NCBI GenBank assembly: GCA_017618815.1 | Contig: JAFZTP010000093.1 | Span: 1 to 45,880, forward strand | Source of the DNA: Bacteroidales bacterium | Lineage (GTDB): Bacteria > Bacteroidota > Bacteroidia > Bacteroidales > UBA932 | DNA length: 45,880 nucleotides | Direction: 5' to 3' | Part shown: one piece after another, positions 147 through 20,339 of the stretch | Numbering within the stretch: the stretch's first letter is position 1 | Layout: each line of letters starts with the position of its first letter | Notes under the pieces: generated by a model | What the model saw: the letters and a program-made list of their open reading frames with translations, nothing else | Database searches by the model: none | Told to the model about the DNA's origin: nothing | Translations under genes and position numbers: made by a program

Positions 147-1277
147 TTATTTCCTTTTGGCAGCGAGTTTCTCATAAAGCTTGTCTGCATTCTCATAGTA
201 AAGCTTCCTGAGGACTTCGTCGCTGAGTCCTATTCCTGAGAGAGCCCAATGATAAGCATTCTCATAATCATAGAAGTGCTCGTCCTCGGTCTCGAGAATT
301 CTCCACTGGAGGTCATACATTTCCTGTGAAGGGTAGTTGTCCGTTCCGAAGAAAATCCTGTCCTGGTACTTCTCGTAGAAGGCCTTGGTGGCGCGAGGAG
401 TGATGGCAGACTCGATGTGGCGGGCGGAGTTGTCGAGATAGAGGTTCGGATGACGGTCCATGATCTCGCCAAGCAGCTGATAGTCATGGGTAAGGTTCAT
501 GAAGTGGCAGGCGATGATGGTCGTGTTCGGATGCCTGTCGCAGCATTCCTCCAGAGTCTTGCAGAGCTCATAGAGGTCGAGAAGGCCCGGAGTCTCCGGA
601 TCGATCTTCCATGTCTCCGCATTAGGGTAACCATCGTTATGCTCGTCCATCTTCTCGTACATCCAGATCGGGTCGCCCACATGGATGATGAGAGGCATGC
701 CAAGCTCGCCGCATTTCTCGAAGAGGGCGTCGAAACGAGGGTCGTTCATATGAGCGGTAGGAGTGGCCTCTCCTGTCTGGAATCCGGTGAAATAGGCATC
801 GCCGAGGCCTTTGTCGCCGACTTCGCCGACTCCCCTTGCTCCCTTCTCGAAGTCACGTACGAGGGAAGCGACTGCCTTTTCTTCGAACTCAGGGGTGCCC
901 CATGCGCCCATGTCAAAGCCACACCACATTTCAAATGCATCTGAAACGCCTTTGTACATTTCATAGAGCTCGTCGAACTTCTCACCGGTAGCATAGGTGT
1001 TGACGACTACCTTGTCGATATTGTTTGCCTTGAGGCGCTCTGCCCACTCTTTGCATTCCTCAACTGTCTCTGCATATGCATGTGAATGCATGTCATGGAC
1101 GGTAAATTTGGCCTGGTGAGGATGATGCTCAGGGAGGTTCATGCATGGGATTGGTTTGTAGTCCTTGAGAAGGAGAGTGTCAAGACAAGATGATGTCTCC
1201 TGCTTAGGGGCCTGTCCGCATGAAACTGCGACGAACGCAGCGGCAGCGAATGCTATTGAAATGTAATTTGTCTTCAT
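147..1277 (-). CDS. Amidohydrolase family (Amidohydro_2-like) lipoprotein
   Basis: Lipobox VAVSC; metal-binding motifs DMHSH, IHVGD, ACHF, FGTD. Confidence 0.85.
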   Translation of the reverse strand: MKTNYISIAFAAAAFVAVSCGQAPKQETSSCLDTLLLKDYKPIPCMNLPEHHPHQAKFTVHDMHSHAYAETVEECKEWAERLKANNIDKVVVNTYATGEKFDELYEMYKGVSDAFEMWCGFDMGAWGTPEFEEKAVASLVRDFEKGARGVGEVGDKGLGDAYFTGFQTGEATPTAHMNDPRFDALFEKCGELGMPLIIHVGDPIWMYEKMDEHNDGYPNAETWKIDPETPGLLDLYELCKTLEECCDRHPNTTIIACHFMNLTHDYQLLGEIMDRHPNLYLDNSARHIESAITPRATKAFYEKYQDRIFFGTDNYPSQEMYDLQWRILETEDEHFYDYENAYHWALSGIGLSDEVLRKLYYENADKLYEKLAAKRK

Positions 1278-1296
1278 GTGACTTTGTTATTAGTTT

Positions 1297-1304
1297 CAAA
1301 TTTA
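1297..1304 (-). promoter_or_regulatory. Bacteroidetes -7 promoter element for the amidohydrolase gene
   Basis: TAAATTTG on minus strand (TAnnTTTG) about 20 nt upstream of the ATG. Confidence 0.5.
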
Positions 1305-1305
1305 G

Positions 1306-1350
1306 AAAAAAAGTTACGGACCCGGCCCTTTTCCAAGCCGGACCCGTAAC
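1306..1350 (-). terminator. Intrinsic terminator closing the SusC/SusD operon
   Basis: Minus strand GTTACGGGTCCGGC-loop-GCCGGGTCCGTAAC followed by a T run. Confidence 0.75.
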
Positions 1351-1374
1351 AAAAACACAACAATAAATGACTTT

Positions 1375-2268
1375 TTATTCCTTGTCCATCGCGAAATGGA
1401 AAGTGGTCTTGTCCTTAGTCGTTCCTTCTCCGAAGTTCATGTAGAAGGAATCGTCAGCCCAGTCTGTCTGATAGAACTTGAAGAAGATACCCATAGAGGA
1501 ACCGTTGATGCCGTATTCCTTCCTTGAGAGGGCGAATTCCATGTAGATCATGTCGCCTTCGTCCTTGTAGGTACCCATCTCGATATTCTTGCCTTCGGCA
1601 TATACCGTATCGCCGGAAGCGCAGTCGTACCAGTCTGCCCATGGCTCTTCAGGTTTCCAGAAGTTTCCTTCGAGGAACCAGTCGCAGCCGAGGCTCTTGG
1701 TGGACATGCCGGTACCGGTAAGGTCGTCGGTATCGAGACGCAGGTTCATGATGGCTCCGTCCGCAGGGGTATTCTCGTTCGTGGTGCTCATGGCTACGTA
1801 GAAGAATACATAATCTGCGTTGTAATCGAACTTGCCGTATGACTTTCCGTCGTCACCTACGAACTTGAAGTCTTCGTATTCGACAGCGTCCCAGTCGTCG
1901 AAAGAATCATCGTCGAGCTTGATAGGAGATGCCTTTGCGACAAGTATCTTGCCGGATATTACCTGCTCCTGGCCATTGTATTTGCCTGACATCTTGATCC
2001 AGTGGAGACCAGGCTTAGGGAAGGTATAGGTATAGGTCTCGCCTTCACCTGTGGTAAGGGTCTCGGCGGTGCCGTTTTCTGTCTTGATAATCTCCCACTT
2101 TACGTCTGTAGTGTTAGGCACTACTGAGTTGAAAGTGAGGGTAAGGCCGTCACATAAGTAGTCGAATTCGATATCCGGAACAGGATCGAGTCCGAGGTCT
2201 CCCTTTCTCACGCAGGATGAAAGGAGCGCCATGGCAGCTATGCTGAATAATATAAATATCTTTTTCAT
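1375..2268 (-). CDS. Surface lipoprotein with PKD/Ig-like domain; probable surface glycan-binding protein
   Basis: Lipobox LLSSC; PKD-like TYTFPKPG segment; acidic Trp-rich C-terminal domain; directly downstream of susD. Confidence 0.65.
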   Translation of the reverse strand: MKKIFILFSIAAMALLSSCVRKGDLGLDPVPDIEFDYLCDGLTLTFNSVVPNTTDVKWEIIKTENGTAETLTTGEGETYTYTFPKPGLHWIKMSGKYNGQEQVISGKILVAKASPIKLDDDSFDDWDAVEYEDFKFVGDDGKSYGKFDYNADYVFFYVAMSTTNENTPADGAIMNLRLDTDDLTGTGMSTKSLGCDWFLEGNFWKPEEPWADWYDCASGDTVYAEGKNIEMGTYKDEGDMIYMEFALSRKEYGINGSSMGIFFKFYQTDWADDSFYMNFGEGTTKDKTTFHFAMDKE

Positions 2269-2280
2269 GGTCTTAGCGTA

Positions 2281-3807
2281 TTAATATCCTGGGTTCTGCT
2301 CGCAGATTTGGTTGTTGTTGATCTCCAGTGAAGGAATCGGGAATACGAGCCTTGTATCAGAGTTCTTGGTGGTAACTCCCGGAGCCGTGAGAGCTGGTTT
2401 TCCAGCAGTGCTCTGGCCGGCTGCATACTGAGTATGGTAACCCCAGTAGTCGCGGACGATATCCTTGCCGTTTCTCATGAGGTCGAAGAAGCGGTGAGCC
2501 TCGAAAGCGAATTCCACGCGAGTCTCCTTGAGCACGAGATCGACGATATCGGTCTTTATGTCAGACTCTGTGTAGAGATGGGCCTCGGCATTGGCCGTCA
2601 TCCTGTGCTTCCTTACCTCGTTCACGTCCTTGAGTGCATTGGCCTTGTCACCCTTGTGGGCGTAAGCCTCTGCACGGTTGAGATACATCTCGGTTATACG
2701 GAGGAATGGAGGAGAGAAGAGGGTCGGCTTGCCATCCTGCCAAGAAAGCTTTGAGCATGGGATGAGGTCAAGACCGTTCTTGGTGTTGACGTCGCAGACG
2801 AATGTCCAGCGGATATCGTCGTCCTCAAGGCTGGTACCGCGGCCCATGTCCTCGAGAAGAGGATCAGAGTAGCCTTCCTCGCCCCAGCAGCCGTCAGCCT
2901 TCATGATCATGGAAGCGACTGAGCCTGAACCCTTGTCGTCCTGAGGGAGCATCTTGAGGCACCAGATAGTCTCAGGTGATGTCCAGGTTGACTTGAAGTA
3001 CTCTTTGAACTCGGCAGGACCGGCGATTTCATAGTTGGAATCATTGATTACCTTGCCGGAATATTCGATACACTTGTCCCACTCGCCCATATAGAGGTAA
3101 ACTCTTGAGAGAAGGGCGCGGACTGCACCTACGGATGCAAAGCAGCGGCTCTGGGAGCGTTCTACGTCCACATCCATGAGCTTCTCGGCCTCGAGAAGGC
3201 AGTTTACTATGTAATCATAGGTTTCCTTGAGGCTCGCACGTCCCTTAGGAGAAGCGTCTGAACCGTTCTCACGGATGATGATGCCCGGCTCGTTAGCTGC
3301 AGTCTCAGCCTTGTATGGCTTGGCGTAGAATCTCACGAGGCTGTGCATAACGTAAGCCTTGAGGAAGAGAGCTTCTCCGTGGAGTGACTTCACCTCGTCG
3401 CTAGGGTTATCCTCCTTGGAGATAACGTCGATTGCAACGTTGGTAGAGTAGATGATCTTATATGACTGTGACCAGAATGAAGCCACGTTGCTGAGGCCCG
3501 GGTGCCTCTCTTCGAACTTGAAGATCATGTTAAGTTCATCAGTGGTAGCGTGTCCATAGACAACGTCGTCTGAAGAGAAGTCAGACATCTGGTAGAACTG
3601 ACGGCCGTACCAGTTGTTGCTGCTGGAGTTCTCCGGATAGTCTTTCATCACGGCGTAGCAGCCGTTGAGAATATCCACGGTACCGGTAGGAGACATGGTC
3701 ATCTGGCGGCCGGTGAGAGAGTTCTCCGGTGCGATATCAAGATCGCAGGAGGTCATCAGGCCTGCGCCCGCAACCATTATGAAGAAATAATTAAGAATCT
3801 TTTTCAT
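2281..3807 (-). CDS. susD: RagB/SusD family nutrient-binding lipoprotein
   Basis: Lipobox MTSC; LRITEMYLNRAEA, ETRVEFAFEAHRFFDLMR, terminal QNPGY; ATG at 3807 preferred. Confidence 0.95.
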   Translation of the reverse strand: MKKILNYFFIMVAGAGLMTSCDLDIAPENSLTGRQMTMSPTGTVDILNGCYAVMKDYPENSSSNNWYGRQFYQMSDFSSDDVVYGHATTDELNMIFKFEERHPGLSNVASFWSQSYKIIYSTNVAIDVISKEDNPSDEVKSLHGEALFLKAYVMHSLVRFYAKPYKAETAANEPGIIIRENGSDASPKGRASLKETYDYIVNCLLEAEKLMDVDVERSQSRCFASVGAVRALLSRVYLYMGEWDKCIEYSGKVINDSNYEIAGPAEFKEYFKSTWTSPETIWCLKMLPQDDKGSGSVASMIMKADGCWGEEGYSDPLLEDMGRGTSLEDDDIRWTFVCDVNTKNGLDLIPCSKLSWQDGKPTLFSPPFLRITEMYLNRAEAYAHKGDKANALKDVNEVRKHRMTANAEAHLYTESDIKTDIVDLVLKETRVEFAFEAHRFFDLMRNGKDIVRDYWGYHTQYAAGQSTAGKPALTAPGVTTKNSDTRLVFPIPSLEINNNQICEQNPGY

Positions 3808-3819
3808 ATCCACAACTTG

Positions 3820-6753
3820 TTAGAATGTGAAGTTAACCTGTAAAATATACTGCCTCTTGTTAGGGTATCTGTTGTCGATTGACTCGATCATTCCGGCTAC
3901 GCCTGAGTCGGCGGAGAGGGATACCTCAGGATCTGCACCCCATACGGTCGTGGCGGTGAAGAGGTTGTCGCAAGAAAGCGAGAGAGTAAGACCGGTGTCC
4001 TTGGTGATCTTCTTAGGAAGAGTGTAGGACAGGGTCACGTTGCGGAGCTTGAAGTAGTTGCCCTTCACGAGGTCGCCGGTGTGATATACAGAGGCGAGAG
4101 CATAGGCAGGGAGACCGATGGTAGCATCGTCGCCCGGCTTGCGCCAGATCTTGTCCTCGTTTGAAGGCATGAGTGAGTTGGATACGAATGTGGCGAGGCG
4201 GCTTGCACGGCTGCGGCCGTAGATGGTATTGCCCCATACGAAGCTGCCGTTAGCGCTGAGAGTGAAGTTCTTCCATGCAACCATGGTAGAAACGCCACCC
4301 TGCCAAGGGATGATAGGAGTACCTGCCTCGACGAAGCGGGCTGATGCGTAGTCGTAGGTAAGGGAACCGTCTTCAGCTACGAACTGCTCGCGGCCGGTCT
4401 GAGGATCCACGCCTGCGTACTCGCGGAGATACCATGTATAGATCGGAACGTTGTCACGATAGATCTGGGTAAGGCTCCTGTAGTTGGACTGCTTGATCTC
4501 GACGCCCTCTCCGAAATTGAAGAGCTTGTTGGTGTTGTATGAGATTGAGAAATCTACGTCCCATTTGAGATCCTTGGTCTTGACAGGGGTTACGCTTACG
4601 GCAGCCTCGAAACCGGAGTTACGTACCGAACCGATGTTCTGCCACTGCTTTGCGAAACCGCCTGAAGGAGCGAGGTCGCGATATACCAGCAGGTCGTTGG
4701 TGGTATTGCAGTAATAGTTGAGGTCGAGAGAAATGCGATCGTAGATGCCTATTTCAGTACCGACGTTGATCTGGGTGGTTTCCTCCCATTTGAGGTCAGG
4801 GTTGGCCATCTGGATAGGAACCGCTGCAGAATTGGAATCGTACTGGGTGGTATATGCGAAGGCCTCGAGATACTTGGATGCACCGATATCCTTCATACCG
4901 GTCTTACCGATACTTGCCTTAAGCTTGAGGTTGGTGATCACGTTTGAGTTGAAGAACTTCTCGTTGTTGATGGCCCATGCTGCCGAAAGGCTCGGGAAGA
5001 TTGCTCCACGATGGTTAGGAGCAAAGGTCGAAGACTCATCGTAACGGAGAGAGCCGGTAAGGAAGTATCTCTGGGCGTAGTTGTAGTTGACCTGGGAGAT
5101 GATTGACTGCATTCCGCTTCTCTCACGGTTTCCGGCAGCATCCTTGTTGGAAGAAGCCACGTCGAGAACTGAGAGGCCGAAAGGAAGGCCTTCACCGGAA
5201 CCGGTAAGGTCGTTGCCCCATGTCATCTGGGCCTCATAACCTACGAGACCGCTTATGGAGTGCTCGCCGAAAGTCTTGTCAGCCTTGAACATGTTGGTGC
5301 TGATTCCACCATAGCTGTAGCTCATTGAATCACCGATTTCGTCGCCGGCCTTCATGTACTCAACCTCTTTGAACCTGTGGTTGTGGCTATGCCAGAAACC
5401 TACCGATCCGCGGGACTGGGAAACGAATGAGAGCCACGGGGTGATCTTCGCGGTAACGACGAAGTCGAGGTCGGTACCGAAGCCCTTGCTGTTGCGCACG
5501 TCTTTTCCGCTTTCGAAACCGACCATAGGGTTGACGTCGTAGCGGCCGTAGAGCTTGCTGTTCTTGAATGACCTGTAGTTTCCGTTCTCATCGTATGGAG
5601 AGTCGAAAGGAATGTTCTCGCCGATATAGTAGACGAGGTTGTCATCCGTGTTGTCGGACATGTTTCCGCTCACGTCGAGATTGGCGGTGAGGGTAAGCCA
5701 CTTGGTGAGGTTGAACGTGTTGTTGGAACGCACGTTGAACTGCTTGTATCCGGTATTTCTGATTGTTCCCTCCTCGTCGTAGTATGAGAATGAGAGATAA
5801 CCTGAGTACCACTCGTTCTTTCCCATTACGGAGAAGTGGTAATTATGGAGAACGGCATTCTGGGTGATGAGCGACCTCCAGTCGGTATCGTTGTTGAGGA
5901 TGGAAGCAGGAAGAGCTTTCTTGAAAGCGAGGTCATCGATGAGATGAGTCTCAGGGTCACGGAAATACTCGCGGTAGTATGTGTACAACTGCCTTGTGTT
6001 CATCAGTCTCTGTCTTGAGAAGTCAGGAGTGACATTACCGAAGTTTGCCTTGAAGTTGAACTGGAGCTTCTTGGAAGTCTTTGCCTTTTTGGTAGTTACG
6101 ACGATCACACCGCCGTTTGCCTGGGCTCCGTACATACCGGTAGCGCCGGCATCCTTGAGGACGGTCACTGACTCCACGTCATCAGGATCATATGATCCGC
6201 CGATGATACCATCGACAACGTAGAGAGGTTCCTGGGAAGCATGCATTGAAGAAGTTCCGCGGATACGGATAGACGGTTCGGAACCAGGACGGCCGCTGGA
6301 CTTGATCACAGTCACGCCTGCAACCTTACCCTGGAGCATATCGCCGATATTGTTACTTACTACGTCCTTGAGTTTCTCAGAAGAAACGGTGGTCACCGCA
6401 CTGGTGATCTCGCCTCTGGTCTTTGAAGAATATCCCATCACGACAACCTCGTCGATAAGCTGGGAATCTACGTCAAGAGTGATGTTGACGATATTTCTGG
6501 CGCCTACAGGAACTTCCGTAGTCCTGAAGCCTACAGAGGAGAAAACAAGAATTGAGTTTGCATCTTTGACAGTGATGGAATAATTACCGTCAATGTCAGT
6601 AATGACACCATTCAAAGTTCCCTTCTCAAATACACTCGCTCCAACCATTGGCTGGCCGTCGTCTCCGGCTTTTACCAGACCCTTGACTTCCACTTGTGCG
6701 AAAGCCACGAGAGAGGAAAGCATCAAAAGACCAAAAAGTAATACTTTTTTCAT
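3820..6753 (-). CDS. susC: SusC/RagA TonB-dependent transporter
   Basis: PLYVVDG, VLKDAGATGMYGAQANGGVIVVTTK, NPDLKWEET, terminal Phe. Confidence 0.97.
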   Translation of the reverse strand: MKKVLLFGLLMLSSLVAFAQVEVKGLVKAGDDGQPMVGASVFEKGTLNGVITDIDGNYSITVKDANSILVFSSVGFRTTEVPVGARNIVNITLDVDSQLIDEVVVMGYSSKTRGEITSAVTTVSSEKLKDVVSNNIGDMLQGKVAGVTVIKSSGRPGSEPSIRIRGTSSMHASQEPLYVVDGIIGGSYDPDDVESVTVLKDAGATGMYGAQANGGVIVVTTKKAKTSKKLQFNFKANFGNVTPDFSRQRLMNTRQLYTYYREYFRDPETHLIDDLAFKKALPASILNNDTDWRSLITQNAVLHNYHFSVMGKNEWYSGYLSFSYYDEEGTIRNTGYKQFNVRSNNTFNLTKWLTLTANLDVSGNMSDNTDDNLVYYIGENIPFDSPYDENGNYRSFKNSKLYGRYDVNPMVGFESGKDVRNSKGFGTDLDFVVTAKITPWLSFVSQSRGSVGFWHSHNHRFKEVEYMKAGDEIGDSMSYSYGGISTNMFKADKTFGEHSISGLVGYEAQMTWGNDLTGSGEGLPFGLSVLDVASSNKDAAGNRERSGMQSIISQVNYNYAQRYFLTGSLRYDESSTFAPNHRGAIFPSLSAAWAINNEKFFNSNVITNLKLKASIGKTGMKDIGASKYLEAFAYTTQYDSNSAAVPIQMANPDLKWEETTQINVGTEIGIYDRISLDLNYYCNTTNDLLVYRDLAPSGGFAKQWQNIGSVRNSGFEAAVSVTPVKTKDLKWDVDFSISYNTNKLFNFGEGVEIKQSNYRSLTQIYRDNVPIYTWYLREYAGVDPQTGREQFVAEDGSLTYDYASARFVEAGTPIIPWQGGVSTMVAWKNFTLSANGSFVWGNTIYGRSRASRLATFVSNSLMPSNEDKIWRKPGDDATIGLPAYALASVYHTGDLVKGNYFKLRNVTLSYTLPKKITKDTGLTLSLSCDNLFTATTVWGADPEVSLSADSGVAGMIESIDNRYPNKRQYILQVNFTF

Positions 6754-6809
6754 GGATTTTTTGAATAATTGGTTACTGTTTCTAATATTGCTGTTGTTAA
6801 AAGAGTTGC

Positions 6810-8861
6810 TTAGAGAGCCACTTCGCTGACCTCTATGAGCAGGCTACCATTGACTTCTGCCTCAAGCATAGTCTTATCTGAAGCGGTAACCGTACCCAGG
6901 TCACGATGGTTGTAGTAGTCTTCGACCTTGTAGGTCTTTCCGGCCTCAAGTCCGCGGAGTTCCACGGAAGCGACCGGACCGGAGGTCGCATAGAAAGCGT
7001 AGTAAAGCTTTCCGTTCCTGGTTAGCACATGGGTCTCAGGATAATCGAAACCGATGTCATACAGGCCAGGCACATACTCGCCCCTCGCAAGCTGCTTGTC
7101 CTCGTAGATGGCCAGGGCATTCTTGAGCAGTTCTTCCTTCTCGGGAGTCAGCAGATAGGAGGCTTCTGCAAAAGGATTGTCCTTAGGCCAGGTAAACTTG
7201 GTACCGATGACGGCGCCGATTCCTAGCTGTGTAGGATAATCATTCCCATTGTCGGAAAGCTCTATATGGTCTCCGTAGTAAGCAAGCTTAGGAGCAAGCG
7301 CGCGGAGCACATAGCCCTTGGTGCGGATCTGCCAGCTGCTCGTAGGGTCGGAAGACACAGCCTTGTCGATGTAAGGGAGATTATAGACCGAGAAGCAGTC
7401 GCCGCAAGGGCAATACTGGATCACGGAGTGGGACTTGACGGCGCGTGCCGTGTCATGAATCAGCTTGTAGAAGCCCGGGAGCTCACGGAAATCCTTCTCC
7501 GGGTCCTCCGGATGATGCTTTGGATTGTAGTCCGGAGACACGCAGTTGAGATGCTGGCCGTCGAGCTTGAGCCCGTCGAAACCATAGTCGGCGATAAACT
7601 TGTGGACCAGAGCTGACTGCTCCCTGCGGACATCTTCGTCCAGCGGAGAAAGGAACCAGCTGTCCCACCACTCGATCTTGCGAGGCTGTCCGTCCTTACC
7701 CAGGATGAGGGCATCCGGATACTTGCGGAGAAACTCGGTGCCTGGATCGGCTGCGAGCGGAGTCCACCAGAGTTCGGCCTTGAGACCATACTTATGGAAC
7801 TCGTCCACCATGTATTTCATGTCGGCATCGCCATTCGGGAAACGCTCCGGAGTGAGGTCCCAGTCGCCTTCGGCAATCTGGAAACCGTCGTCGAGGGTAG
7901 CCCACTTGAAGCCGAGTTCCTTGACCTTAGGAAGGGTGCCGACAATCTCGGCGATAGTGAATTTACGCTCATAGCCCCATGCGCACCATGCGGTTTCATA
8001 GGCCTCAGGAACGCTTTCAGGCATCTTCACGCCGACTTTGTCGAGGAGCTGCGCATAGTTGCGGAGAGCCCCGAAGCAGTCGCCGGAGTAAAGGCTGATG
8101 AAGCATGTGTAAGTATCGAGAGAGCCGTCAGGACTGAGCACGACCGGCTCTTCGTATTCTTTGACCACGGCGATGTCAGCATAGTCGTTGCCGGCTTTCT
8201 TGTCGACCGGCAGGCTGACGATCTGCGGAGTCGGCTCGAGATGGCCGATGATCACTCCGGCATCGCGGCGCCACAGACATACGACAGGGACTCCGCCGCC
8301 GTAATCGACATGGTCGTCGGCAGGATTCATCCCCATGAAGTTGCGCTGGTAGAACTCGTCGCCTACAGGCTTGATCCAGTCCTCACGGGCGCTGGTAGAC
8401 TGGCCCTGGAAGGACCAGAAATACGGAGCAGGGGCCTCTGCCTGGACCTGGAGGTCGCACATCGACCATCCGTCCACGCTCAGTTCCTCTCCGGACCGGT
8501 TGCGATAGACAGCATCCACCACAACAGTCGAAGGGAATGCGTCGTACACCGAAAGCTTGAGCTCGCGGGTGATCTCAGGACCTGATACGGATTCTCCCTT
8601 GAAGATATAGCACTTGCCGCGGCCGAACTTGTCGCTGATGCTCTTCTTGGATGTGCCGACAGTCTTGAAAACCACCTTGTTTCCCTCTACGGTAATCGAG
8701 CCGAAGTCGGTTGCAGATTTGATCAGAGGTGTTGCCGTTGCAGCATTCTCGACGCGGAAAGCCATCCCATCCTCCTCAGGAACGACCGAAAGGTCTCCCG
8801 AAACAGGAGCGGAGACGCAGGCTGACACGACGAGAGCCGCAATGGCGAGATACGGTTTCAT
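6810..8861 (-). CDS. GH36-like (clan GH-D) alpha-galactosidase-family glycoside hydrolase, probable lipoprotein
   Basis: WCAWGY, LDDGFQ..GDW, RFPNG, GFDGLKLDG (nucleophile), YCPCG, SSDP (acid/base region); VVSAC possible lipobox. Confidence 0.85.
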   Translation of the reverse strand: MKPYLAIAALVVSACVSAPVSGDLSVVPEEDGMAFRVENAATATPLIKSATDFGSITVEGNKVVFKTVGTSKKSISDKFGRGKCYIFKGESVSGPEITRELKLSVYDAFPSTVVVDAVYRNRSGEELSVDGWSMCDLQVQAEAPAPYFWSFQGQSTSAREDWIKPVGDEFYQRNFMGMNPADDHVDYGGGVPVVCLWRRDAGVIIGHLEPTPQIVSLPVDKKAGNDYADIAVVKEYEEPVVLSPDGSLDTYTCFISLYSGDCFGALRNYAQLLDKVGVKMPESVPEAYETAWCAWGYERKFTIAEIVGTLPKVKELGFKWATLDDGFQIAEGDWDLTPERFPNGDADMKYMVDEFHKYGLKAELWWTPLAADPGTEFLRKYPDALILGKDGQPRKIEWWDSWFLSPLDEDVRREQSALVHKFIADYGFDGLKLDGQHLNCVSPDYNPKHHPEDPEKDFRELPGFYKLIHDTARAVKSHSVIQYCPCGDCFSVYNLPYIDKAVSSDPTSSWQIRTKGYVLRALAPKLAYYGDHIELSDNGNDYPTQLGIGAVIGTKFTWPKDNPFAEASYLLTPEKEELLKNALAIYEDKQLARGEYVPGLYDIGFDYPETHVLTRNGKLYYAFYATSGPVASVELRGLEAGKTYKVEDYYNHRDLGTVTASDKTMLEAEVNGSLLIEVSEVAL

Positions 8862-8868
8862 AAAAGTA

Positions 8869-9819
8869 TTAGAGTTTAATTATCTGGTTGAAATGCTTCA
8901 GGGCTGCTTCCTCGACGGCTTCCTTGGAAGTAAAAGCGCCGGTTCCGCCAGCCGCAGTAGTATTGATCGCGCCAGTAAGGTTTCCGAGGAACTGGCAGTA
9001 TTCGAGGTCCTTCCCCTGTACGAAGGCAGTGATGAAGCCAGAGTTGAAGCTGTCACCTGCTCCGATAGCGTCGACCACATTGCGGTTGAGCATGGCAGGA
9101 AGGTTCCTTTCTCCGTCCTTGGTAACGACGAGAGAACCCTTTGAGCCCCTCTTTACCACGAGGACGTTGATGTATGGACGGACCACGTCCAGAGCCTTTT
9201 CGAGGCTGCTTTCCCTGGTAAGTGCCTTGAGCTCCTGCTCGTTAGGCATGAATATGTCCACCAACGGGAGGATCTTCTTGTAGTCGAAGTCCCATTTCTC
9301 CTCAGGGTCGAACTGCATGTCCATGGACAAAGTCGCGCCGTTGTCTTTCACCAGCTTGACGATTTCATAGATGTCCCTGTGGAGAGTCTCCTGCATGAAA
9401 ATGGAGGAGATGTGGACGTGCTTAGCCTCGGCGATGGCCTCTGGACGGATGTCTTTCACGCCCATTATGCTCATCGCTCCAGGATAAGTAACGTTGGCGC
9501 GGTCCTCGTCGTAGTTGAGGATCGCTGTCAGACCGGTAGCGGCGGTCGACACCTCGATGAGGTTCGAGGTGTCCACTCCGCGTTTCTCCAGAGAGGTCTT
9601 GACAAATGCGCCGAAATCATCATTCCCGACCATGCCGAGGAAAGATACCTTTGCACCCAGGGATGCCGCATTGGCGGCGAAGATGGCAGTGGAGCTGCCG
9701 AGGGTAAGGGTCATCTCCTTTGCGAAAATCTCTTTTCCGACCTCAGGGAAGCCGCAGATCCTGTTGAGCAGAAGGTCTACGTTGAGCTCTCCCAGCGCTA
9801 TGATGTCAAACTTCTTCAT
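8869..9819 (-). CDS. PfkB/ribokinase family carbohydrate kinase
   Basis: GELNVD, GMVGNDDFG, PNEQE, VVDAIGAGDSF signatures. Confidence 0.93.
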   Translation of the reverse strand: MKKFDIIALGELNVDLLLNRICGFPEVGKEIFAKEMTLTLGSSTAIFAANAASLGAKVSFLGMVGNDDFGAFVKTSLEKRGVDTSNLIEVSTAATGLTAILNYDEDRANVTYPGAMSIMGVKDIRPEAIAEAKHVHISSIFMQETLHRDIYEIVKLVKDNGATLSMDMQFDPEEKWDFDYKKILPLVDIFMPNEQELKALTRESSLEKALDVVRPYINVLVVKRGSKGSLVVTKDGERNLPAMLNRNVVDAIGAGDSFNSGFITAFVQGKDLEYCQFLGNLTGAINTTAAGGTGAFTSKEAVEEAALKHFNQIIKL

Positions 9820-11049
9820 TTATAACAAGTCATTAAGGTTAACCAAATTGAATGCTACGTAATACTTGTCGATAGCCCTTTCGATAGTGGAAAGGACTAT
9901 GCCTTCAGCATCGATTCCGTTAAGGTTGAGGTTGTTGTAGAGGGTCTGACGGGCTGCTATCGCCTCCGGCTTCTGCCAGATATAGCGGGCGCCGGTCTGG
10001 ATGAGCCACCTCTGACGGTCAGGAGTGATGGACTCGAAATCGTCCGGAGACTCGTTTCCATGAACCCATTTCTTCCACCTTCCGGAAGCGATTACGAGCT
10101 CTTTGAGGATTGCCGTCATGTTGGAGTGCATAGCCACCTGGCCGGCCTCGTAGAGGGAATCCTCCACCTTCTCGAGTTCCTCGAGAGCATTGAATTCGCT
10201 GACAGTGAATTCAGGACCGACATTGGCGGCGCCCATCCTGCAGACAGGATAGTCCTGCGGGTTCTCCACGTCGTCTGTGTAGTGACCTTTTATGAAGCTG
10301 CCATATTCGGCAACGATGGAAGTAAGGTCCTTGGCAACCTCCGGATCGAAGAATGTAGTGTGAAGGTCGGTACCGACTTTTCCGACCACGAAGCATGGCC
10401 ATGCGTCAGAACATCCGTTCTTGGCAAGACCCTCCTTCAGGAGCACGAGGAATTTGCGGAATACAGTCTCGTCAGCGAGTCCGCCGTGGACTTCTTCCGT
10501 TCCGACTTCATAAGCGATTGGAGCGAGGCCCCTTTCCTTTCTGAAGTTCTCTATATGGGTAATGAGTTCGATTGTCCTTTCAGCTACAACCTCGATCTTG
10601 ATCGTCTCGCCTTTTGGAAGGAAGCGGTCGACGGTAGGATCGACATGGATAAGCTCGTATCCAGCAAGCAGCGCTGCTTCATATGATTTCTTGACGCCAT
10701 CCATGGCCTTTTCATATGGCCACATCTCCAAAGTCTGGATGTCCTTGAGCCATGGACCGCCGTGGTCGATCGCTGCAATATACGGGCCAGTATAGTTGTT
10801 TCTCTTGGCCTCGACTTTCATCACTCTGACGAAGTCTTTCTGGGTCATTCCGGTGTATCCGCCGTCATTGTCCACCTGGTTGAGGGTAGCGGCGAACATG
10901 ATAGGAGCGTTATTGCGCTTGGCTGCGCGGAAAGCGGCCTTGATGACGGCCGGCGAGTTCGGGCAGACGGCAAGGAGGGTCATCGGCTTGTGGCCCTCGG
11001 CAGTAAGAGTCTGGACCCTGTCCAGAAGTTGTCTTAGTTTCGGTTTCAT
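9820..11049 (-). CDS. kbaZ: GatZ/KbaZ family protein (tagatose-6-phosphate 4-epimerase / aldolase accessory subunit family)
   Basis: ATLNQVD.DGGYTG, DHGGP, IHVDPT, GTEEVHGG, KGHYTD, ANVGPEFT motifs. Confidence 0.88.
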   Translation of the reverse strand: MKPKLRQLLDRVQTLTAEGHKPMTLLAVCPNSPAVIKAAFRAAKRNNAPIMFAATLNQVDNDGGYTGMTQKDFVRVMKVEAKRNNYTGPYIAAIDHGGPWLKDIQTLEMWPYEKAMDGVKKSYEAALLAGYELIHVDPTVDRFLPKGETIKIEVVAERTIELITHIENFRKERGLAPIAYEVGTEEVHGGLADETVFRKFLVLLKEGLAKNGCSDAWPCFVVGKVGTDLHTTFFDPEVAKDLTSIVAEYGSFIKGHYTDDVENPQDYPVCRMGAANVGPEFTVSEFNALEELEKVEDSLYEAGQVAMHSNMTAILKELVIASGRWKKWVHGNESPDDFESITPDRQRWLIQTGARYIWQKPEAIAARQTLYNNLNLNGIDAEGIVLSTIERAIDKYYVAFNLVNLNDLL

Positions 11050-11058
11050 ATCAATGTC

Positions 11059-12189
11059 CTAGTATTTATAGATCTTGACTCCGCTTACTACTCTGGAGAT
11101 GGCGCCTCGGATGGAAGGATTGTCCGGAGACAGACCATGGTCGAGCGAGAAGAAGTATCCCGCGAGCTGGCCTACCATCACGAATGGAGCGCATACGTAT
11201 TCGTTATCCTTGAGAAGTTCCGGCTTAGGAGCATTGATCTCGAAATCCAGAATATCCTTGACCCCTGACGGAGTAACAGAAATAACCACCTGGGCTGCAG
11301 GATGATTGTCATGGTCCACCTGCTCGATGAGGTCGAGCTCATACTGGCGTGTGTATGGATTCTCTGAAAGAAGATATACCACGAGAGTTTCTTCGTTGAT
11401 CACGGCCTTAGGTCCATGCCTGAGACCCATGAAAGAGTCGAATGCGCATACGATGCCTCCGTCAGTCAGCTCCTGGAGCTTGAGGTGGCTCTCGCAGGCG
11501 ATGCCCTTGAGAGGACCGGAACCGAGGAATACGGCTCTCTTGATCTTCTTGTCGGCGAGCTTCTTGATCTTGTCTGCGACCTCGCTGTTGACGATATAGT
11601 CGGCGAAATCAGCGGCAGCCTGAAGCTTTGCGCGCTCACCCTCCAGGGAAGCCACGTTCTTGCAGAGAAGGCTGGTCACCAGCATTGATGTGAAGCTGCT
11701 GGTCATGGCGAGACTCCTGTCATTGGTCCCGTCAGGAAGCACGATCACGAAATCCTTTCCCGGCACGGCTATCTTGGCAAGCTCTCCGTCAGGATTGCAG
11801 GTGATAATGAGATGGTTGGAACCCTTGCAGAACTTGTTGGCCACCTCATAGGCGGCGACGCTCTCAGGACTGTTTCCTGAACGTCCGAAAGAGATGAAGA
11901 GCTTAGGTGTGTGACTCAGGAAATACTCCGGAGCGGAAACGATGTCGGTAGTAGCGACAGCCTTCGCCTGGACATATCCTGCCTTCATGTATTCGCATAC
12001 TGCCGTGTCGGCGATATAGGCAGAAGATCCGGCGCCGGTAAGGATGATCTCGGAGTCTTTGTTGATTGAATTCTGTTCGAGGAACTTCTCGAGTTCCTTC
12101 TTCTGGCTTAATACAATGTCGTAAGTATCCATCCACATCTTTGGCTGATGCGCGATCTCACGTATTGTGTAGCAATCTAGGTTCAGCAT
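11059..12189 (-). CDS. agaS: Double-SIS protein, AgaS-like galactosamine-6-phosphate deaminase/isomerase
   Basis: REIAHQP, LTGAGSS, SFGRSGNSPES, AMTSSFT, LKLQELT, GLRHGPK, PDNPS..G.ISRVV.GV.IY. Confidence 0.9.
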   Translation of the reverse strand: MLNLDCYTIREIAHQPKMWMDTYDIVLSQKKELEKFLEQNSINKDSEIILTGAGSSAYIADTAVCEYMKAGYVQAKAVATTDIVSAPEYFLSHTPKLFISFGRSGNSPESVAAYEVANKFCKGSNHLIITCNPDGELAKIAVPGKDFVIVLPDGTNDRSLAMTSSFTSMLVTSLLCKNVASLEGERAKLQAAADFADYIVNSEVADKIKKLADKKIKRAVFLGSGPLKGIACESHLKLQELTDGGIVCAFDSFMGLRHGPKAVINEETLVVYLLSENPYTRQYELDLIEQVDHDNHPAAQVVISVTPSGVKDILDFEINAPKPELLKDNEYVCAPFVMVGQLAGYFFSLDHGLSPDNPSIRGAISRVVSGVKIYKY

Positions 12190-12208
12190 ATTATCGTTTA
12201 TATATTAA

Positions 12209-12321
12209 TTTTCGATACCAATTCGCTTACAAAACTAAAGAATGTTTATTTATTTTCAAAACTTTTGGAGTAAAAAACTCTGAATTTTCGTAAGTTTTCG
12301 TTCGAATCATATTAATTTTCA
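12209..12321. promoter_or_regulatory. Divergent agaS/agaR promoter region with candidate AgaR operator repeats
   Basis: TTTTC(G/A) at 12209, 12253, 12285, 12295, 12316; minus-strand TAGTTTTG (-7 element) at 12230-12237. Confidence 0.5.
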
Positions 12322-12396
12322 GAAATTTATTGGTTTTTAAGAAATAAAGCCGTACCTTTACTTTGTAAACAATCCGCTAGAATAGCCGAAAGAACC

Positions 12397-13182
12397 ATGA
12401 AAAGAAAATTCTCAGCCGAGGAACGCAGAAGCCTTCTGCTCAATCAGTTAAAGAATGAGGGGAAAATTCTTATCTCCGACCTCATGAAACAGTTCGATGT
12501 CTCTGAAGTATCCATCCGCAAAGATCTCGCAGTCCTGGAAGAGAGAAAGCTGCTTCTCCGTGTCAAAGGAGGAGCTGTAAACATGCATCAGTCCGTCGAT
12601 TACGACGACATGAGCATCAGCCAGAAACAGCGTCTCCACTCCCGCGAAAAGCAGCTGATCGGAAAGTTCGCAGCCTCGATGATCACGAACGGAGAGACCG
12701 TGATCCTGGATTCCGGCACTACGGCCATGGAGATCGCCAAGAATCTCGAAGGCCTTAACAACTTGACTATCATCACAAACGCCCTGGACATCGCCATCAC
12801 CCTCAACCACTACGACAGGTTCAACGTGATCGCTCTCGGCGGCAAGATGAGATCGGTATCATATTCTACGGTGGGCATGCTCGCAGAGTCCGCCCTGAAG
12901 AATTTCTACTGCGACAAACTCTTCCTCGGAGTCGATTCGGTCAGCATAAAGGACGGAATATCAACTCCTAACCTCGAGGAGGCCAGCCTCAACCAGGCGA
13001 TGATCAACTCGGCGAAAGAGGTCATCGCGATCTTCGACTCCAGCAAGCTCGGACGAAGGAGTTTCGTGCATATCGCAGCCCTTGACAAGATTGACACAAT
13101 AATCACGGATTCAGGCATTTCTCCTGACTTCAAGGACTATGTCGAAGCATCCGGCATCAAGCTCCACATCGTGGACCTTTAA
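12397..13182 (+). CDS. agaR: DeoR/GlpR family repressor, AgaR-like
   Basis: HTH VSEVSIRKDL; LDSGTT, TNAL, DKLFLGVD; divergent from agaS. Confidence 0.85.
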   Translation: MKRKFSAEERRSLLLNQLKNEGKILISDLMKQFDVSEVSIRKDLAVLEERKLLLRVKGGAVNMHQSVDYDDMSISQKQRLHSREKQLIGKFAASMITNGETVILDSGTTAMEIAKNLEGLNNLTIITNALDIAITLNHYDRFNVIALGGKMRSVSYSTVGMLAESALKNFYCDKLFLGVDSVSIKDGISTPNLEEASLNQAMINSAKEVIAIFDSSKLGRRSFVHIAALDKIDTIITDSGISPDFKDYVEASGIKLHIVDL

Positions 13183-13255
13183 TACCTATTATTATATATA
13201 GTAAGGTCTGGAGTTTATTTTTTATATATAATTTTGCAAATATTCTTTCTTTTCT

Positions 13256-13263
13256 TAACTTTG
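13256..13263 (+). promoter_or_regulatory. -7 promoter element for the EamA gene
   Basis: TAACTTTG about 40 nt upstream of the ATG. Confidence 0.55.
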
Positions 13264-13302
13264 CGTAAGACATAAAGGTTAATTATCGAAAGAAATTCAG
13301 AT

Positions 13303-14166
13303 ATGGCAAAGAAACACAATTGGCTTCTCTATGCTCTGATTACCGTGGTGACATGGGGTATCTGGGGCGCATTCTCATCAACACCTGACTATCCTGCAAC
13401 CCTTACCTATGTGGTCTGGGCGATAAGCATGGTCCCGTGCGCTCTTGTAGCATTGTCCAATATCAAGTTTAAGCTTGACACAAACCCGAAAGGAGTAATC
13501 CTCAGCATGGGAGTAGGCCTTCTCGGAGCCGGCGGACAACTGATCCTCTTCGAAGCCCTGAAGCATGGACCTGCATATCTGATCTTCCCTCTCATCTCCG
13601 TCGCCCCTATCGTGACAGTGATTCTCTCTACGGTATTCCTCAAGGAAAGGGTCAGCAAGCTGGGCGCTGTCGGAATACTCCTGGCCTTCGTAGCCCTCGT
13701 CTGCTTCTCGCTCTCGAGCGGATCCGACGAAGCCGCAAAGGACAACCTCTGGATAATCCTCGCCTCTCTGGTGTTCATCTGCTGGGGTACCCAGGCCTTC
13801 GTAATGAAGCTTGCCAACAACCACACCCCAGACGCAGAAAGCGTATTCGTCTACATGGCGATCTCGGCAGTAGTGCTGATTCCGTTCGCCCTGATGATGA
13901 CCGATTTCTCGCAGCCTATCAACACCTCTTTCAACGGACCTTATCTTACTTTCTGCATACAGATACTGAACTCTATCGGCGCATTCGCCCTCGTATATGC
14001 CAACAGGTATGGAAAGGCAATGCTCGTGGCCCCGCTCGCCGACGCACTCGCCCCGGTGATTACAACGGCCATCTCGCTGGTGCTCTACGCCCACATCCCT
14101 GGCGTCGCCCAGATCATCGGTATCGTATCGGCAATCAGCTGCGTGCTGATCTTCAGCAGGGAGTAA
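13303..14166 (+). CDS. DMT/EamA family inner-membrane transporter
   Basis: About 10 hydrophobic segments in two repeats; WGIWG, FLKERVS. Confidence 0.88.
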   Translation: MAKKHNWLLYALITVVTWGIWGAFSSTPDYPATLTYVVWAISMVPCALVALSNIKFKLDTNPKGVILSMGVGLLGAGGQLILFEALKHGPAYLIFPLISVAPIVTVILSTVFLKERVSKLGAVGILLAFVALVCFSLSSGSDEAAKDNLWIILASLVFICWGTQAFVMKLANNHTPDAESVFVYMAISAVVLIPFALMMTDFSQPINTSFNGPYLTFCIQILNSIGAFALVYANRYGKAMLVAPLADALAPVITTAISLVLYAHIPGVAQIIGIVSAISCVLIFSRE

Positions 14167-14250: not shown

Positions 14251-14319
14251 TTATGTATATAGGTATTGACCGGAAATTCGTATATTTGATCCAGCTAAGA
14301 CTAAATGACATTAACACTG

Positions 14320-15639
14320 ATGAAACGATTATTGACACTGGCCCTGGCCACAGTATTCGCAGTCTGTGCCGCAGATGCCCAGACTTATGACGTACTCGAG
14401 CAAGTCCGCTCCGACTGGAGAAAAGCCGCAGGCATGGAAGGGCCGCACAGGATCAACCCCGAAGATTTCGGCACCATGAGCATGGCCCCGGCGGGCTACA
14501 GGCCATTCTACATCAGCCACTATGGCCGCCACGGATCCAGGACGGCATGGAACTCCGAGACATACTCCTACCTCCAGGATGTGTTGACCAAGGGACATGA
14601 GGCCGGAAACCTCACCGAAAAAGGCGAAGACTTCTACAGACGCTACGAAGATTTCTATCTTATCCCATACATCAACTCCGGAGACCTGATGCCTCTCGGA
14701 TACGAGCAGCACAAAGTAATAAGCAACTGGACATACGAGAACTTCCCTGAAGTATTCGAAGGGGAGAGAAAAGTCAATGCTATCGTGTCCACTTCTTCAA
14801 GGAGCATCGTCAGCATGGCTTCTTTCTGCGTGGAGCTCAAGGGGCACAATCCCAAGTTGGACATCTACCAGGAATCGACCCACGCAGGCATGTGCATAGC
14901 GGCTCCGGTTGACGCTCCGAAGCAGCTGAGGCGCTATTTCAAGGGCCAGTTCGACAAGCCTGCCCGCCCTTCCGGCTTTCAGGAAAAACTGTACGACCAC
15001 GACGACGTGCTCTCCATTTTCTTCAAGGACACGGATGCCCTGAGGCACCACAAGGGCGGAAAGTCCAGGGTATGCTCCAGAATCGTGAGCATCGTTTCAG
15101 GATACAGGAACATAACAGACGAGCCGATATTCGAGGGCTTCATCCCGAACGAGCTTCTCGTGAAAATATGGGAATCGGGCAACTACGGCTCATACACGAG
15201 CTACCAGCGCAAGCGTTACGGCCACATCCCGCTGCTCGAGGACGTAATCGCCAAATCGGACGCAGCGATTGCCGACCGCAGCATCGCGGCCAACCTCCGC
15301 TTCGGACACGACTATGTCGCAGAAGGACTTCTGTTCCTCATAAATGCCAACGGATGCTCCACTCTCGTGGACAAGGCCGAGGATGCCAAATACTGGTTCC
15401 AGAGCTACAATATCCCGATGGCGGCCACGATACTGTTCGTGTTCTATGAGAATAAGAAAGGGGATGTCATATTCAAGCTGGTGCTGAATGAGCATGAGGC
15501 AACCTTGCCGCAGCTGACTCCTGTCGAGGGCTGCTACTATCGCTGGTCTGACTTCAAGGTCTGGGCCGCGCAGCTCCTGGCGGAACACCCGGAGCTCTCA
15601 AAAGAAGAAGCCGAAGCCGCCTCGAAAGACGCCGACTAG
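14320..15639 (+). CDS. Secreted histidine acid phosphatase (clade 2, MINPP/phytase-like)
   Basis: HYGRHGSR (RHGxR) and FGHD motifs; signal peptide; ATG at 14320 preferred over 14305. Confidence 0.88.
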   Translation: MKRLLTLALATVFAVCAADAQTYDVLEQVRSDWRKAAGMEGPHRINPEDFGTMSMAPAGYRPFYISHYGRHGSRTAWNSETYSYLQDVLTKGHEAGNLTEKGEDFYRRYEDFYLIPYINSGDLMPLGYEQHKVISNWTYENFPEVFEGERKVNAIVSTSSRSIVSMASFCVELKGHNPKLDIYQESTHAGMCIAAPVDAPKQLRRYFKGQFDKPARPSGFQEKLYDHDDVLSIFFKDTDALRHHKGGKSRVCSRIVSIVSGYRNITDEPIFEGFIPNELLVKIWESGNYGSYTSYQRKRYGHIPLLEDVIAKSDAAIADRSIAANLRFGHDYVAEGLLFLINANGCSTLVDKAEDAKYWFQSYNIPMAATILFVFYENKKGDVIFKLVLNEHEATLPQLTPVEGCYYRWSDFKVWAAQLLAEHPELSKEEAEAASKDAD

Positions 15640-17537: not shown

Positions 17538-17683
17538 AGCTTGTAAAATTTAACTGGGCATCAAAGATATTGATTTTCAATGTAAAATGCAATAACCCAC
17601 CTTTATAAAGGCAAAAAAAATGCCACGGAAGAAAACAATAGGAGTATTTTCGTTATTTTTGTAACATACAAAAAAGATTGATT

Positions 17684-20259: not shown

Positions 20260-20339
20260 GTGAATCGTCGTATTGGTATACTTGTTGTTCCAAAAATCCA
20301 TGCAATCTAGCCATTCCCTTTTAAAATAACAAACATCAC

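Follow-up and report, generated by a model that had tools for sequence, protein, structure and literature searches.

The aga pathway for amino sugars, polysaccharide utilization loci (PULs), the deacetylase and galactosaminidase pair of Flavonifractor plautii (FpGalNAcDeAc and FpGalNase) and the tagatose-6-phosphate epimerase TagE are already known, each having been described separately. Here we describe a ten-gene locus (positions 147–14166) in a 45,880-nucleotide stretch of DNA (the window: bases 1–45880 of contig JAFZTP010000093.1, here C205) from a Bacteroidales genome (GCA_017618815.1, here G000; assembly 1.89 Mb, completeness 72.8%). In its predicted working the locus resembles an aga pathway supplied by an FpGalNase-type pair inside a PUL, and is a canonical member of neither. 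We propose, with about even confidence, that it is a SusC/SusD PUL fused to an AgaS-type module and provided with its own regulon, directed at alpha-linked N-acetylgalactosamine/galactosamine (GalNAc/GalN) polymers of the Pel or galactosaminogalactan (GAG) type by a deacetylate-then-cut logic. Labels beginning with L, G and C denote gene loci, genomes and contigs of G000, respectively.

The aga pathway of Escherichia coli, Shewanella and streptococci (PMC12118421, PMC5583593, PMC4694137) has in common with this locus, going by best family matches, an AgaS-type deaminase, an AgaR-type DeoR repressor, a KbaZ-family gene and tagatose-6-phosphate as intermediate, and the Shewanella variant is likewise free of a phosphotransferase system (PTS), with an outer-membrane transporter, permease and kinase. 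The locus differs in lacking a PTS, AgaA/NagA and a ROK-family AgaK, with PfkB and EamA proteins in the kinase and permease slots; the deacetylase candidate, an exported protein of the Amidohydro_2 family, is predicted to act before uptake, the setting is a SusC/SusD PUL, and the aldolase is separate or absent. FpGalNase and its partner (PMC11762096; PDB 9AWT, 8X1B) offer the same clade of glycoside hydrolase family 36 (GH36) with the same site residues, a metal-hydrolase partner nearby and the same predicted order of deacetylation and cutting. The GH36 described here, however, is only ~30% identical (by eye), has no C-terminal carbohydrate-binding module and is a lipoprotein in a Gram-negative PUL, while its partner is an amidohydrolase TIM barrel rather than a relative of FpGalNAcDeAc. 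Hydrolases of Pel and GAG (GH114, GH135, GH166, GH191 and SIR_1591; PMC12054363, PMC12345266) have been studied as enzymes of the polymer producer or in isolation; the DUF4832 domain is shared with SIR_1591 and GH114 or GH135 genes lie near GH36 in some related loci, but here such genes accompany uptake and catabolic genes, and Pel production by the host was rejected as an explanation, as no PelG was found in G000 and four related genomes. TagD and TagE of Sinorhizobium (PMC9720028) likewise join a PfkB kinase to a KbaZ-family epimerase converting tagatose-6-phosphate to fructose-6-phosphate, whereas tagatose-6-phosphate is predicted here to arise from GalN-6-phosphate via AgaS and the KbaZ-like clade is divergent (best PDB match 3TXV, E 1e-17). 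Bacteroides thetaiotaomicron BT4240-50 (PMC11992087) is also a Bacteroidales PUL tied to GalNAc metabolism with a kinase of its own, but that enzyme is a GalNAc kinase (likely forming the 1-phosphate), and the main text of that paper nowhere mentions agaS, tagatose or deacetylase.

Eight genes of the locus form a run on the minus strand: an agaS-like gene (11059–12189, predicted GalN-6-phosphate deaminase/isomerase), a divergent gatZ/kbaZ-like gene (9820–11049, PF08013, predicted tagatose-6-phosphate 4-epimerase), pfkB (8869–9819, PF00294, predicted galactosamine 6-kinase), the GH36 gene (6810–8861, FpGalNase-like clade, lipoprotein-type N-terminus, predicted exo-alpha-galactosaminidase), a susC-like TonB-dependent transporter gene (3820–6753, TIGR04056 698 bits, above cut-off), a susD-like lipoprotein gene (2281–3813, PF07980 and PF14322), a further lipoprotein that likely binds glycans at the surface (1375–2268, lipobox-like N-terminus) and an Amidohydro_2 lipoprotein (147–1277, 376 aa, PF04909 E 1e-21, predicted periplasmic or surface GalNAc de-N-acetylase). 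The gaps along this run are 9, 0, 7, 56, 6, 12 and 97 bp. Divergent from it on the plus strand, across a control region with candidate AgaR operators (12190–12396), are an agaR-like DeoR repressor gene (12397–13182) and an EamA/DMT transporter gene (13303–14166, PF00892, predicted GalN importer). The hallmarks of a PUL are present (tandem susC–susD, a glycoside hydrolase and a regulator). An initial annotation made from the sequence had described the run from agaS to the lipoprotein with agaR and EamA divergent, and this tight arrangement is borne out here; it had omitted the amidohydrolase gene, although its coordinates took that gene in, and an open reading frame (ORF) that starts at 146 and leaves the contig, and its PKD label for the lipoprotein finds no Pfam match. 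The names AgaS, AgaR and KbaZ hold as best matches and fall short of the NCBIfam cut-offs: the AgaS-like protein scores 356 bits on TIGR02815 (cut-off 529), the AgaR-like protein 253 on NF040755 (just below 260) and the very divergent KbaZ-like protein 103 (569; PF08013 125 bits). AgaS-type PDB entries match the AgaS-like protein at 220–270 bits and others at 57 or less. As had been stated, Pfam and NCBIfam scans find no aga PTS, NagA/AgaA, KbaY, ROK or major facilitator superfamily gene within the locus, although to call the module 'minimal' is misleading, since contig C160 carries another AgaR-like gene and a gene for a KbaY-like aldolase.

Three samples were used for comparison. A scan with the KbaZ-like protein gave 121 relatives, the best 80 of which were kept with flanks of at most 10 kb, many of them shortened; one draw of 400 Bacteroidota genomes (completeness at least 90%) lies behind the GH36, AgaS, DUF4874 and amidohydrolase counts; and 80 metagenome GH36 loci were taken from 547 relatives found. 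The genomes in these counts are related rather than independent, so the counts overstate, which tells against our interpretation throughout; Fisher tests are given no weight for the same reason. The ten genes recur in identical order in L001–L004, L024 and G430, and this conservation means that the gene order is not due to chance. The best 80 of 121 KbaZ loci all carry titles of Bacteroidales-type genomes, many from ruminants, and include as neighbours pfkB (68), agaS (66), agaR (35), GH36 (34), EamA (20), amidohydrolase (19), DUF4832-type (11) and KbaY-like (5) genes. Homologues of the EamA protein with 41–57% identity are encoded beside agaS or kbaZ in Burkholderia, in metagenome loci and elsewhere in the Bacteroidota. 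The GH36 gene is patchy, occurring in 5/36 genomes of the same genus and 12/400 of the phylum draw, and 10 of those 12 have AgaS. We consider it very likely that the locus serves galactosamine catabolism through AgaS.

The best PDB match of the GH36 protein is FpGalNase (phmmer 207 bits, others at most 47), and a full-length profile of 20 clade sequences scores FpGalNase at 402–405 bits versus 91 for the next alpha-galactosidase. FpGalNase residues W317, D346, D347, W387, K461, D463, C513 and D532 correspond, in a mapping made by hand from a printed alignment, to W295, D324, D325, W365, K432, D434, C486 and D505, which are kept in 49–50 of 50 homologues. Most of these residues are general GH36 machinery, and the case for GalN specificity therefore rests on clade and context. 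Two points count against that specificity: the conserved residues speak for an intact GH36 site rather than a preference for GalN, and the position of FpGalNase Y464 is occupied by Gly. On balance the enzyme probably does act on GalN, and we hold this with good confidence. FpGalNase itself acts after a separate deacetylase (PMC11762096).

A deacetylase had been thought missing from the system, which is not supported: an exported amidohydrolase is encoded in the operon and tracks AgaS and GH36 across lineages, and the substrate therefore need not arrive de-N-acetylated, as had been suggested. This protein is the strongest candidate for the de-N-acetylase that had seemed absent, and on genomic context there is a fairly good chance that it acts as a GalNAc de-N-acetylase outside the cytoplasm. 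Close homologues occur in 14/400 genomes of the phylum draw, 11 of them with AgaS (21/400 overall), and the family is present in 29/80 metagenome GH36 loci. A lipoprotein-type N-terminus is common to the locus-linked homologues, and some agaS operons contain signal-less paralogues, in many cases adjacent to an SSS transporter gene. NagA (TIGR00221, at its cut-off) was not found in G000, G430, G074 or G468–G473, all amidohydrolase carriers, while the six genomes without the amidohydrolase at the locus (G460–G464, G466) all have NagA, two of them carrying the amidohydrolase elsewhere. This pattern spans two or three clades, not independent cases, and the tree made for the amidohydrolase is a quick one; completeness is 98% for G430 and 100% for G074, with no figure for G460–G473. 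The AlphaFold2 model (predicted local distance difference test score, pLDDT, 95), used in place of a single-sequence fold (pLDDT 52) that was set aside, is an amidohydrolase TIM barrel whose top fold matches are uncharacterised (Z 21), and H64, H66, H199, H258 and D313 are conserved in the family. The carbohydrate deacetylase PpOngB stands at Z 16.9, within the pack of fold matches, and no function is singled out. The protein has no NCBIfam match, hence is not NagA/CE9 by TIGR00221. Homology to FpGalNAcDeAc, whose structure is solved (PMC11762096), was rejected on the TIM-barrel fold and the want of a PDB sequence match.

Several observations count against a deacetylase role. Neither the single protein nor a 108-sequence profile has a PDB sequence match; the fold neighbours are uncharacterised proteins, decarboxylases and lactonases; 3 of the 14 carriers in the phylum draw have no AgaS; and in the GH36-bearing genomes G409, G412, G421, G426, G465, G467, G028 and G212 neither the amidohydrolase nor NagA was found. 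An ESM Atlas search matched only unnamed amidohydrolase and DUF4832/DUF4874 clusters. A separate unnamed family of ~510 aa stands beside GH36 in L104 (14688–16217), L111 (5713–7269) and L177 (665–3690) and occurs in G028 and G212; its members may be hydrolases or deacetylases that take the place of the amidohydrolase. A 97%-identical amidohydrolase is recorded from 'Bacteroidales bacterium WCE2008', which we take to be a cultured rumen isolate, so that growth tests may be feasible.

Evidence for a regulon comes from the agaS–agaR gap (12190–12396), which holds four TTTCG/CGAAA repeats (at 12210, 12286, 12296 and 12387) against 0.38 expected (0.001 of 2000 shuffles) and a TAnnTTTG element at 12230–12237 on the minus strand; we take the former to be an AgaR-like operator motif and the latter a promoter-like motif. 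In a survey of 104 crudely called intergenic gaps of G000, eight contain at least three such repeats, and four of the eight precede this locus, two units on contig C160 and a gene on C12; the other four (on C33, C70, C48 and C116) adjoin unrelated genes and were discarded. The C160 locus (G000:C160:6178-15394, L115) encodes a second AgaR-like protein (52% identical to the first), a KbaY-like class II aldolase (below equivalog cut-offs, 75% identical to an agaS-linked one) preceded by a tyrosine-phosphatase-like lipoprotein, one DUF4874/DUF4832 protein and one divergent DUF4832 protein. The initial view that the system has no aldolase route is not supported, as this KbaY-like gene of G000 lies behind similar operator-like repeats. 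The C160 DUF4832 protein has no PDB sequence match, and two further DUF4874/DUF4832 genes lie on C12 and C107. Phytase-like and DUF5106 proteins are also encoded at the C160 locus. Coverage by contigs from four RNA runs does not differ between the locus and its flanks, and so is no evidence of transcription.

We lean slightly towards a substrate of the Pel/GAG type, a suggestion of the initial annotation that gains comparative support from links to DUF4832, GH114 and GH135. DUF4874 occurs in 24/400 genomes of the phylum draw, in 8/12 with the GH36 versus 16/388 others, and in all eight co-carrying genomes it lies within ~20 kb of GH36. The DUF4832 TIM-barrel protein SIR_1591 of Streptococcus intermedius disrupts Pel aggregates (PMC12345266), and DUF4832 genes are found in Gram-positive pel clusters of streptococci, including S. 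gallolyticus, and clostridia (10.1101/768473). The C-terminal part of the lipoprotein at 1375–2268 resembles family c105, which neighbours DUF4832 hydrolases (hhalign 95%). In the soil bacterium Burkholderia arboris (L178:6115-16130, NZ_CP101526.1) genes for a GH36 (45% identical), a GH114 and a porin diverge from eamA–kbaZ–agaS–BadF kinase–agaR, and the ORFs scanned there include neither a deacetylase nor an aldolase; this compact unannotated cluster has the look of a full system for feeding on polygalactosamine. In metagenome locus L200 the gene set recurs with an amidohydrolase added, and a GH135-family domain lies near GH36 in L114 and L260. GH114 enzymes are endo-alpha-1,4-galactosaminidases (PMC12054363) and are abundant in rumen fungi (PMC6054980).

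Against a Pel/GAG substrate it must be set that the likeness of the DUF4874/DUF4832 proteins to SIR_1591 is a shared Pfam domain (DUF4832) only, and that 16 of the 24 DUF4874 genomes do not have this GH36. The window has no DUF4832 gene and none was found in G460–G464, G466, G123, G379, G003 or G214, while DUF4832/DUF4874, GH114 and GH135 each occur near GH36 in only 1/80 metagenome loci. GH109 alpha-N-acetylgalactosaminidases (6/80 KbaZ loci) and phosphatase-like genes (53/80) point to other substrates. In the incomplete G000 GH114 was not found and a GH135 domain query had no tblastn match, GH166 and GH191 not being searched separately. DUF4832 matches on Spirosoma and Nonomuraea replicons have no aga genes nearby. 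A further family (c40, e.g. L011:15358-16917 and L106:5044-6558; ~510 aa, N-terminus resembling a twin-arginine translocation signal, no Pfam match) stands beside GH36 in 7/80 KbaZ and 16/80 metagenome loci and is a candidate new glycosidase; a relationship to DUF4832 (hhalign 11.6% and 39%) was not counted.

The same core could instead serve host alpha-GalNAc, with the deacetylase and GH36 removing Tn or blood-group-A caps from salivary or gut mucin as in Flavonifractor plautii. In keeping with this, FpGalNase, the one enzyme of the GH36 clade that has been characterised, acts on blood group A, close relatives come from ruminant guts, and GH109 genes lie beside many loci; G000 itself carries a GH109 gene (C174, L131:8163-9572) and an APH-family kinase that is a BT4240-like candidate (G000:C137:3684-4865), both isolated, with homologues linked to the module in relatives. 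However, the same GH36 occurs with AgaS, KbaZ and EamA in soil Burkholderia beside GH114 and on many high-GC metagenome contigs, the DUF4832 hydrolases and the locus have operator-like repeats in common, and the neighbours scanned included no sialidase, fucosidase or mucin protease, so that we regard a host target as unlikely.

More improbable still is a phosphorylated or O-acetylated GalN(Ac) polymer from the wall or capsule of other bacteria, of teichoic-acid-like type, in place of Pel/GAG. The phosphatase-like genes of the KbaZ loci (purple acid phosphatase 38, phytase-like 9, His-phosphatase 5, with alkaline phosphatase seen separately in 5 loci), an AXE1 esterase in 42/80 and the phosphatase-like lipoprotein before kbaY on C160 would fit such a substrate, but the phosphatases come from unrelated families, are mostly limited to related rumen clades and are rare in non-rumen loci, and His-phosphatases have many paralogues in G000. 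In the Paludibacteraceae-type loci (L027–L080, e.g. L035:11211-21148) the AXE1 acetyl esterase gene lies between kbaZ and pfkB, with large purple-acid-phosphatase proteins following in tandem.

The order of the cytoplasmic steps depends on the roles of PfkB and the KbaZ-like protein. PfkB scores 47 bits on TIGR03168 against a cut-off of 216, whereas separate LacC-like neighbours in other loci reach 221–223, and a role as LacC/1-phosphofructokinase-type (1-PFK) tagatose-6-phosphate kinase was rejected on that ground. AgaS is present in 21/400 genomes of the phylum draw, where the slot after agaS holds a LacC/1-PFK-like gene in eight (two called by NCBIfam, one by Pfam, the others by BLAST grouping), KbaZ in nine, both in none and neither in four. 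A PfkB orthologue is found at 18 of the 21 AgaS loci, the other three ending at contig edges, and stands beside the separate LacC-like kinase in seven of the eight LacC-bearing loci. Among the 80 metagenome GH36 loci BadF kinase occurs in nine and PfkB in seven, never together, and in B. arboris the gene between agaS and agaR encodes a BadF kinase. Since PfkB alternates with BadF and is kept beside a LacC-like kinase, it likely acts before tagatose-6-phosphate, as a galactosamine kinase; ROK kinases do exist in G000, though none at the locus, which is a point against this assignment.

For the KbaZ-like protein, alternation with LacC and the frequent absence of an aldolase partner suggest that it is probably a tagatose-6-phosphate epimerase. 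In the metagenome GH36 loci KbaZ is found 13 times and KbaY/LacD not at all, L176 and L177 combine KbaZ with a class I LacD, and KbaY was not found in 13/18 related agaS–kbaZ–pfkB genomes, including the fully complete G074. This pattern fits a TagE-like epimerase better than a helper subunit; Agrobacterium Atu3167 presumably belongs with the TagD/TagE-type tagatose route. Against an epimerase role, the aldolase gene is still intact in six of the nine kbaZ loci of the phylum draw, G001 encodes PfkB and KbaY without LacC or KbaZ, and KbaZ is elsewhere named a tagatose-6-phosphate kinase (PMC12118421, PMC4694137). In one kbaZ operon (L171:12887-13818) kbaY has shrunk to a 114-aa fragment followed by an acetyltransferase gene, which suggests that the aldolase is dispensable there.

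About as improbable as a teichoic-acid-like substrate, if marginally more so, is another route for the same substrate, in which a housekeeping ROK kinase makes GalN-6-phosphate, PfkB or a phosphofructokinase makes tagatose-1,6-bisphosphate, the C160 KbaY cleaves this and KbaZ is a helper subunit. The C160 aldolase, the ROK kinases of G000, the gene content of G001 and the description of E. coli KbaZ/GatZ as helper subunits (PMC9720028, PMC10101011) would agree with it, but not the retention of PfkB beside LacC-like kinases, the pairing of KbaZ with class I LacD or the many related genomes in which KbaY was not found. Finally, an alpha-galactoside/tagatose locus, with an ordinary GH36 alpha-galactosidase (Pfam labels it melibiase) and PfkB (105 bits on a tagatose kinase model) and KbaZ acting as in the TagD/TagE precedent (PMC9720028), is very improbable, as the GH36 is far nearer FpGalNase than any solved alpha-galactosidase, agaS heads the operon and accompanies most KbaZ loci, and the amidohydrolase, GH109 and GH114 links would be left unexplained.

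The reading we prefer, a PUL coupled to AgaS-type catabolism of Pel/GAG-type polymers, would run as follows; gene content and order are observed, and every chemical step is inferred from sequence. The DUF4874/DUF4832 hydrolases of C160, C12 and C107 would cut the polymer and SusCD would take up the oligomers, whose N-acetyl groups would be stripped by the amidohydrolase lipoprotein outside the cytoplasm; the FpGalNase-like GH36 would then free galactosamine from chain ends. EamA would import it, PfkB convert it to GalN-6-phosphate and AgaS convert this to tagatose-6-phosphate and ammonium. The KbaZ-like protein would epimerise this to fructose-6-phosphate, the KbaY-like aldolase of C160 would offer this strain a further exit, and the AgaR-like repressors would govern both loci. 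The order from GH36 through EamA, PfkB and AgaS to a fructose-6-phosphate exit by KbaZ is that of the initial annotation, and is supported by the comparative evidence.

Beyond the ten genes, an ORF on the minus strand (3–146), whose ATG at 146 comes straight after the stop codon of the amidohydrolase gene, appears to be the 5' end of a further exported protein running off the contig end; it has no Pfam match, and a likeness by eye to the start of a purple acid phosphatase was discounted for that reason. This position, next after the amidohydrolase, holds a His-phosphatase-like gene in L001–L004 and G430, not in L024. On the plus strand a His-phosphatase-like exported protein (14305–15639, weak PF00328) is of uncertain membership, with five paralogues elsewhere in G000 and none at that position in L001–L004 or G430. 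Further along the window are a Stealth-family protein (17678–18652; CR1 and CR2, hexose-1-phosphoryl transferase type) with no obvious capsule cluster around it, a glycerophosphodiester phosphodiesterase with a DUF4996 domain (19216–20301), and a segment of ~39–44% GC against ~52% with ORFs of 844 and 280 aa (37354–40730), possibly horizontally acquired. In six Alistipes loci (L048, L053, L055, L059, L062, L064) a divergent KbaZ has no agaS or pfkB nearby; in two of them, genes for a KbaY-like aldolase, a glycerophosphodiester phosphodiesterase, a ribulose-phosphate epimerase and a permease are close, which may point to a different sugar route.

A search of full-text literature, in which subscription papers are thinly covered and supplements excluded, found no description of this locus, of a Pel/GAG utilisation locus or of the amidohydrolase as a deacetylase. 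Such a locus may have been predicted in silico before; Leyn 2012 reportedly predicted variant kinases and permeases in Proteobacteria.

Pel and GAG are widespread biofilm matrices, and the literature found concerns their synthesis and cutting, none of it consumers. If our reading is true, it would provide a complete feeding route for Pel/GAG in a gut commensal and would give the FpGalNase clade, hitherto known for converting blood groups, a role in nature. It would also give assayable functions to an exported amidohydrolase family, DUF4874/DUF4832 and subfamilies of PfkB and EamA, and the new deacetylase and galactosaminidase pair would be a candidate tool for biofilm dispersal or A-to-O blood conversion. 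More broadly, and tentatively, gut Bacteroidales may use a multi-locus AgaR regulon to graze the Pel/GAG biofilm matrix of other microbes, by means of a new amidohydrolase-fold de-N-acetylase family, DUF4874/DUF4832 endo-hydrolases, a PfkB GalN kinase and a divergent KbaZ epimerase, and the GH36-centred module, recurring with swapped parts across phyla, may serve to recycle cationic biofilm polysaccharide.

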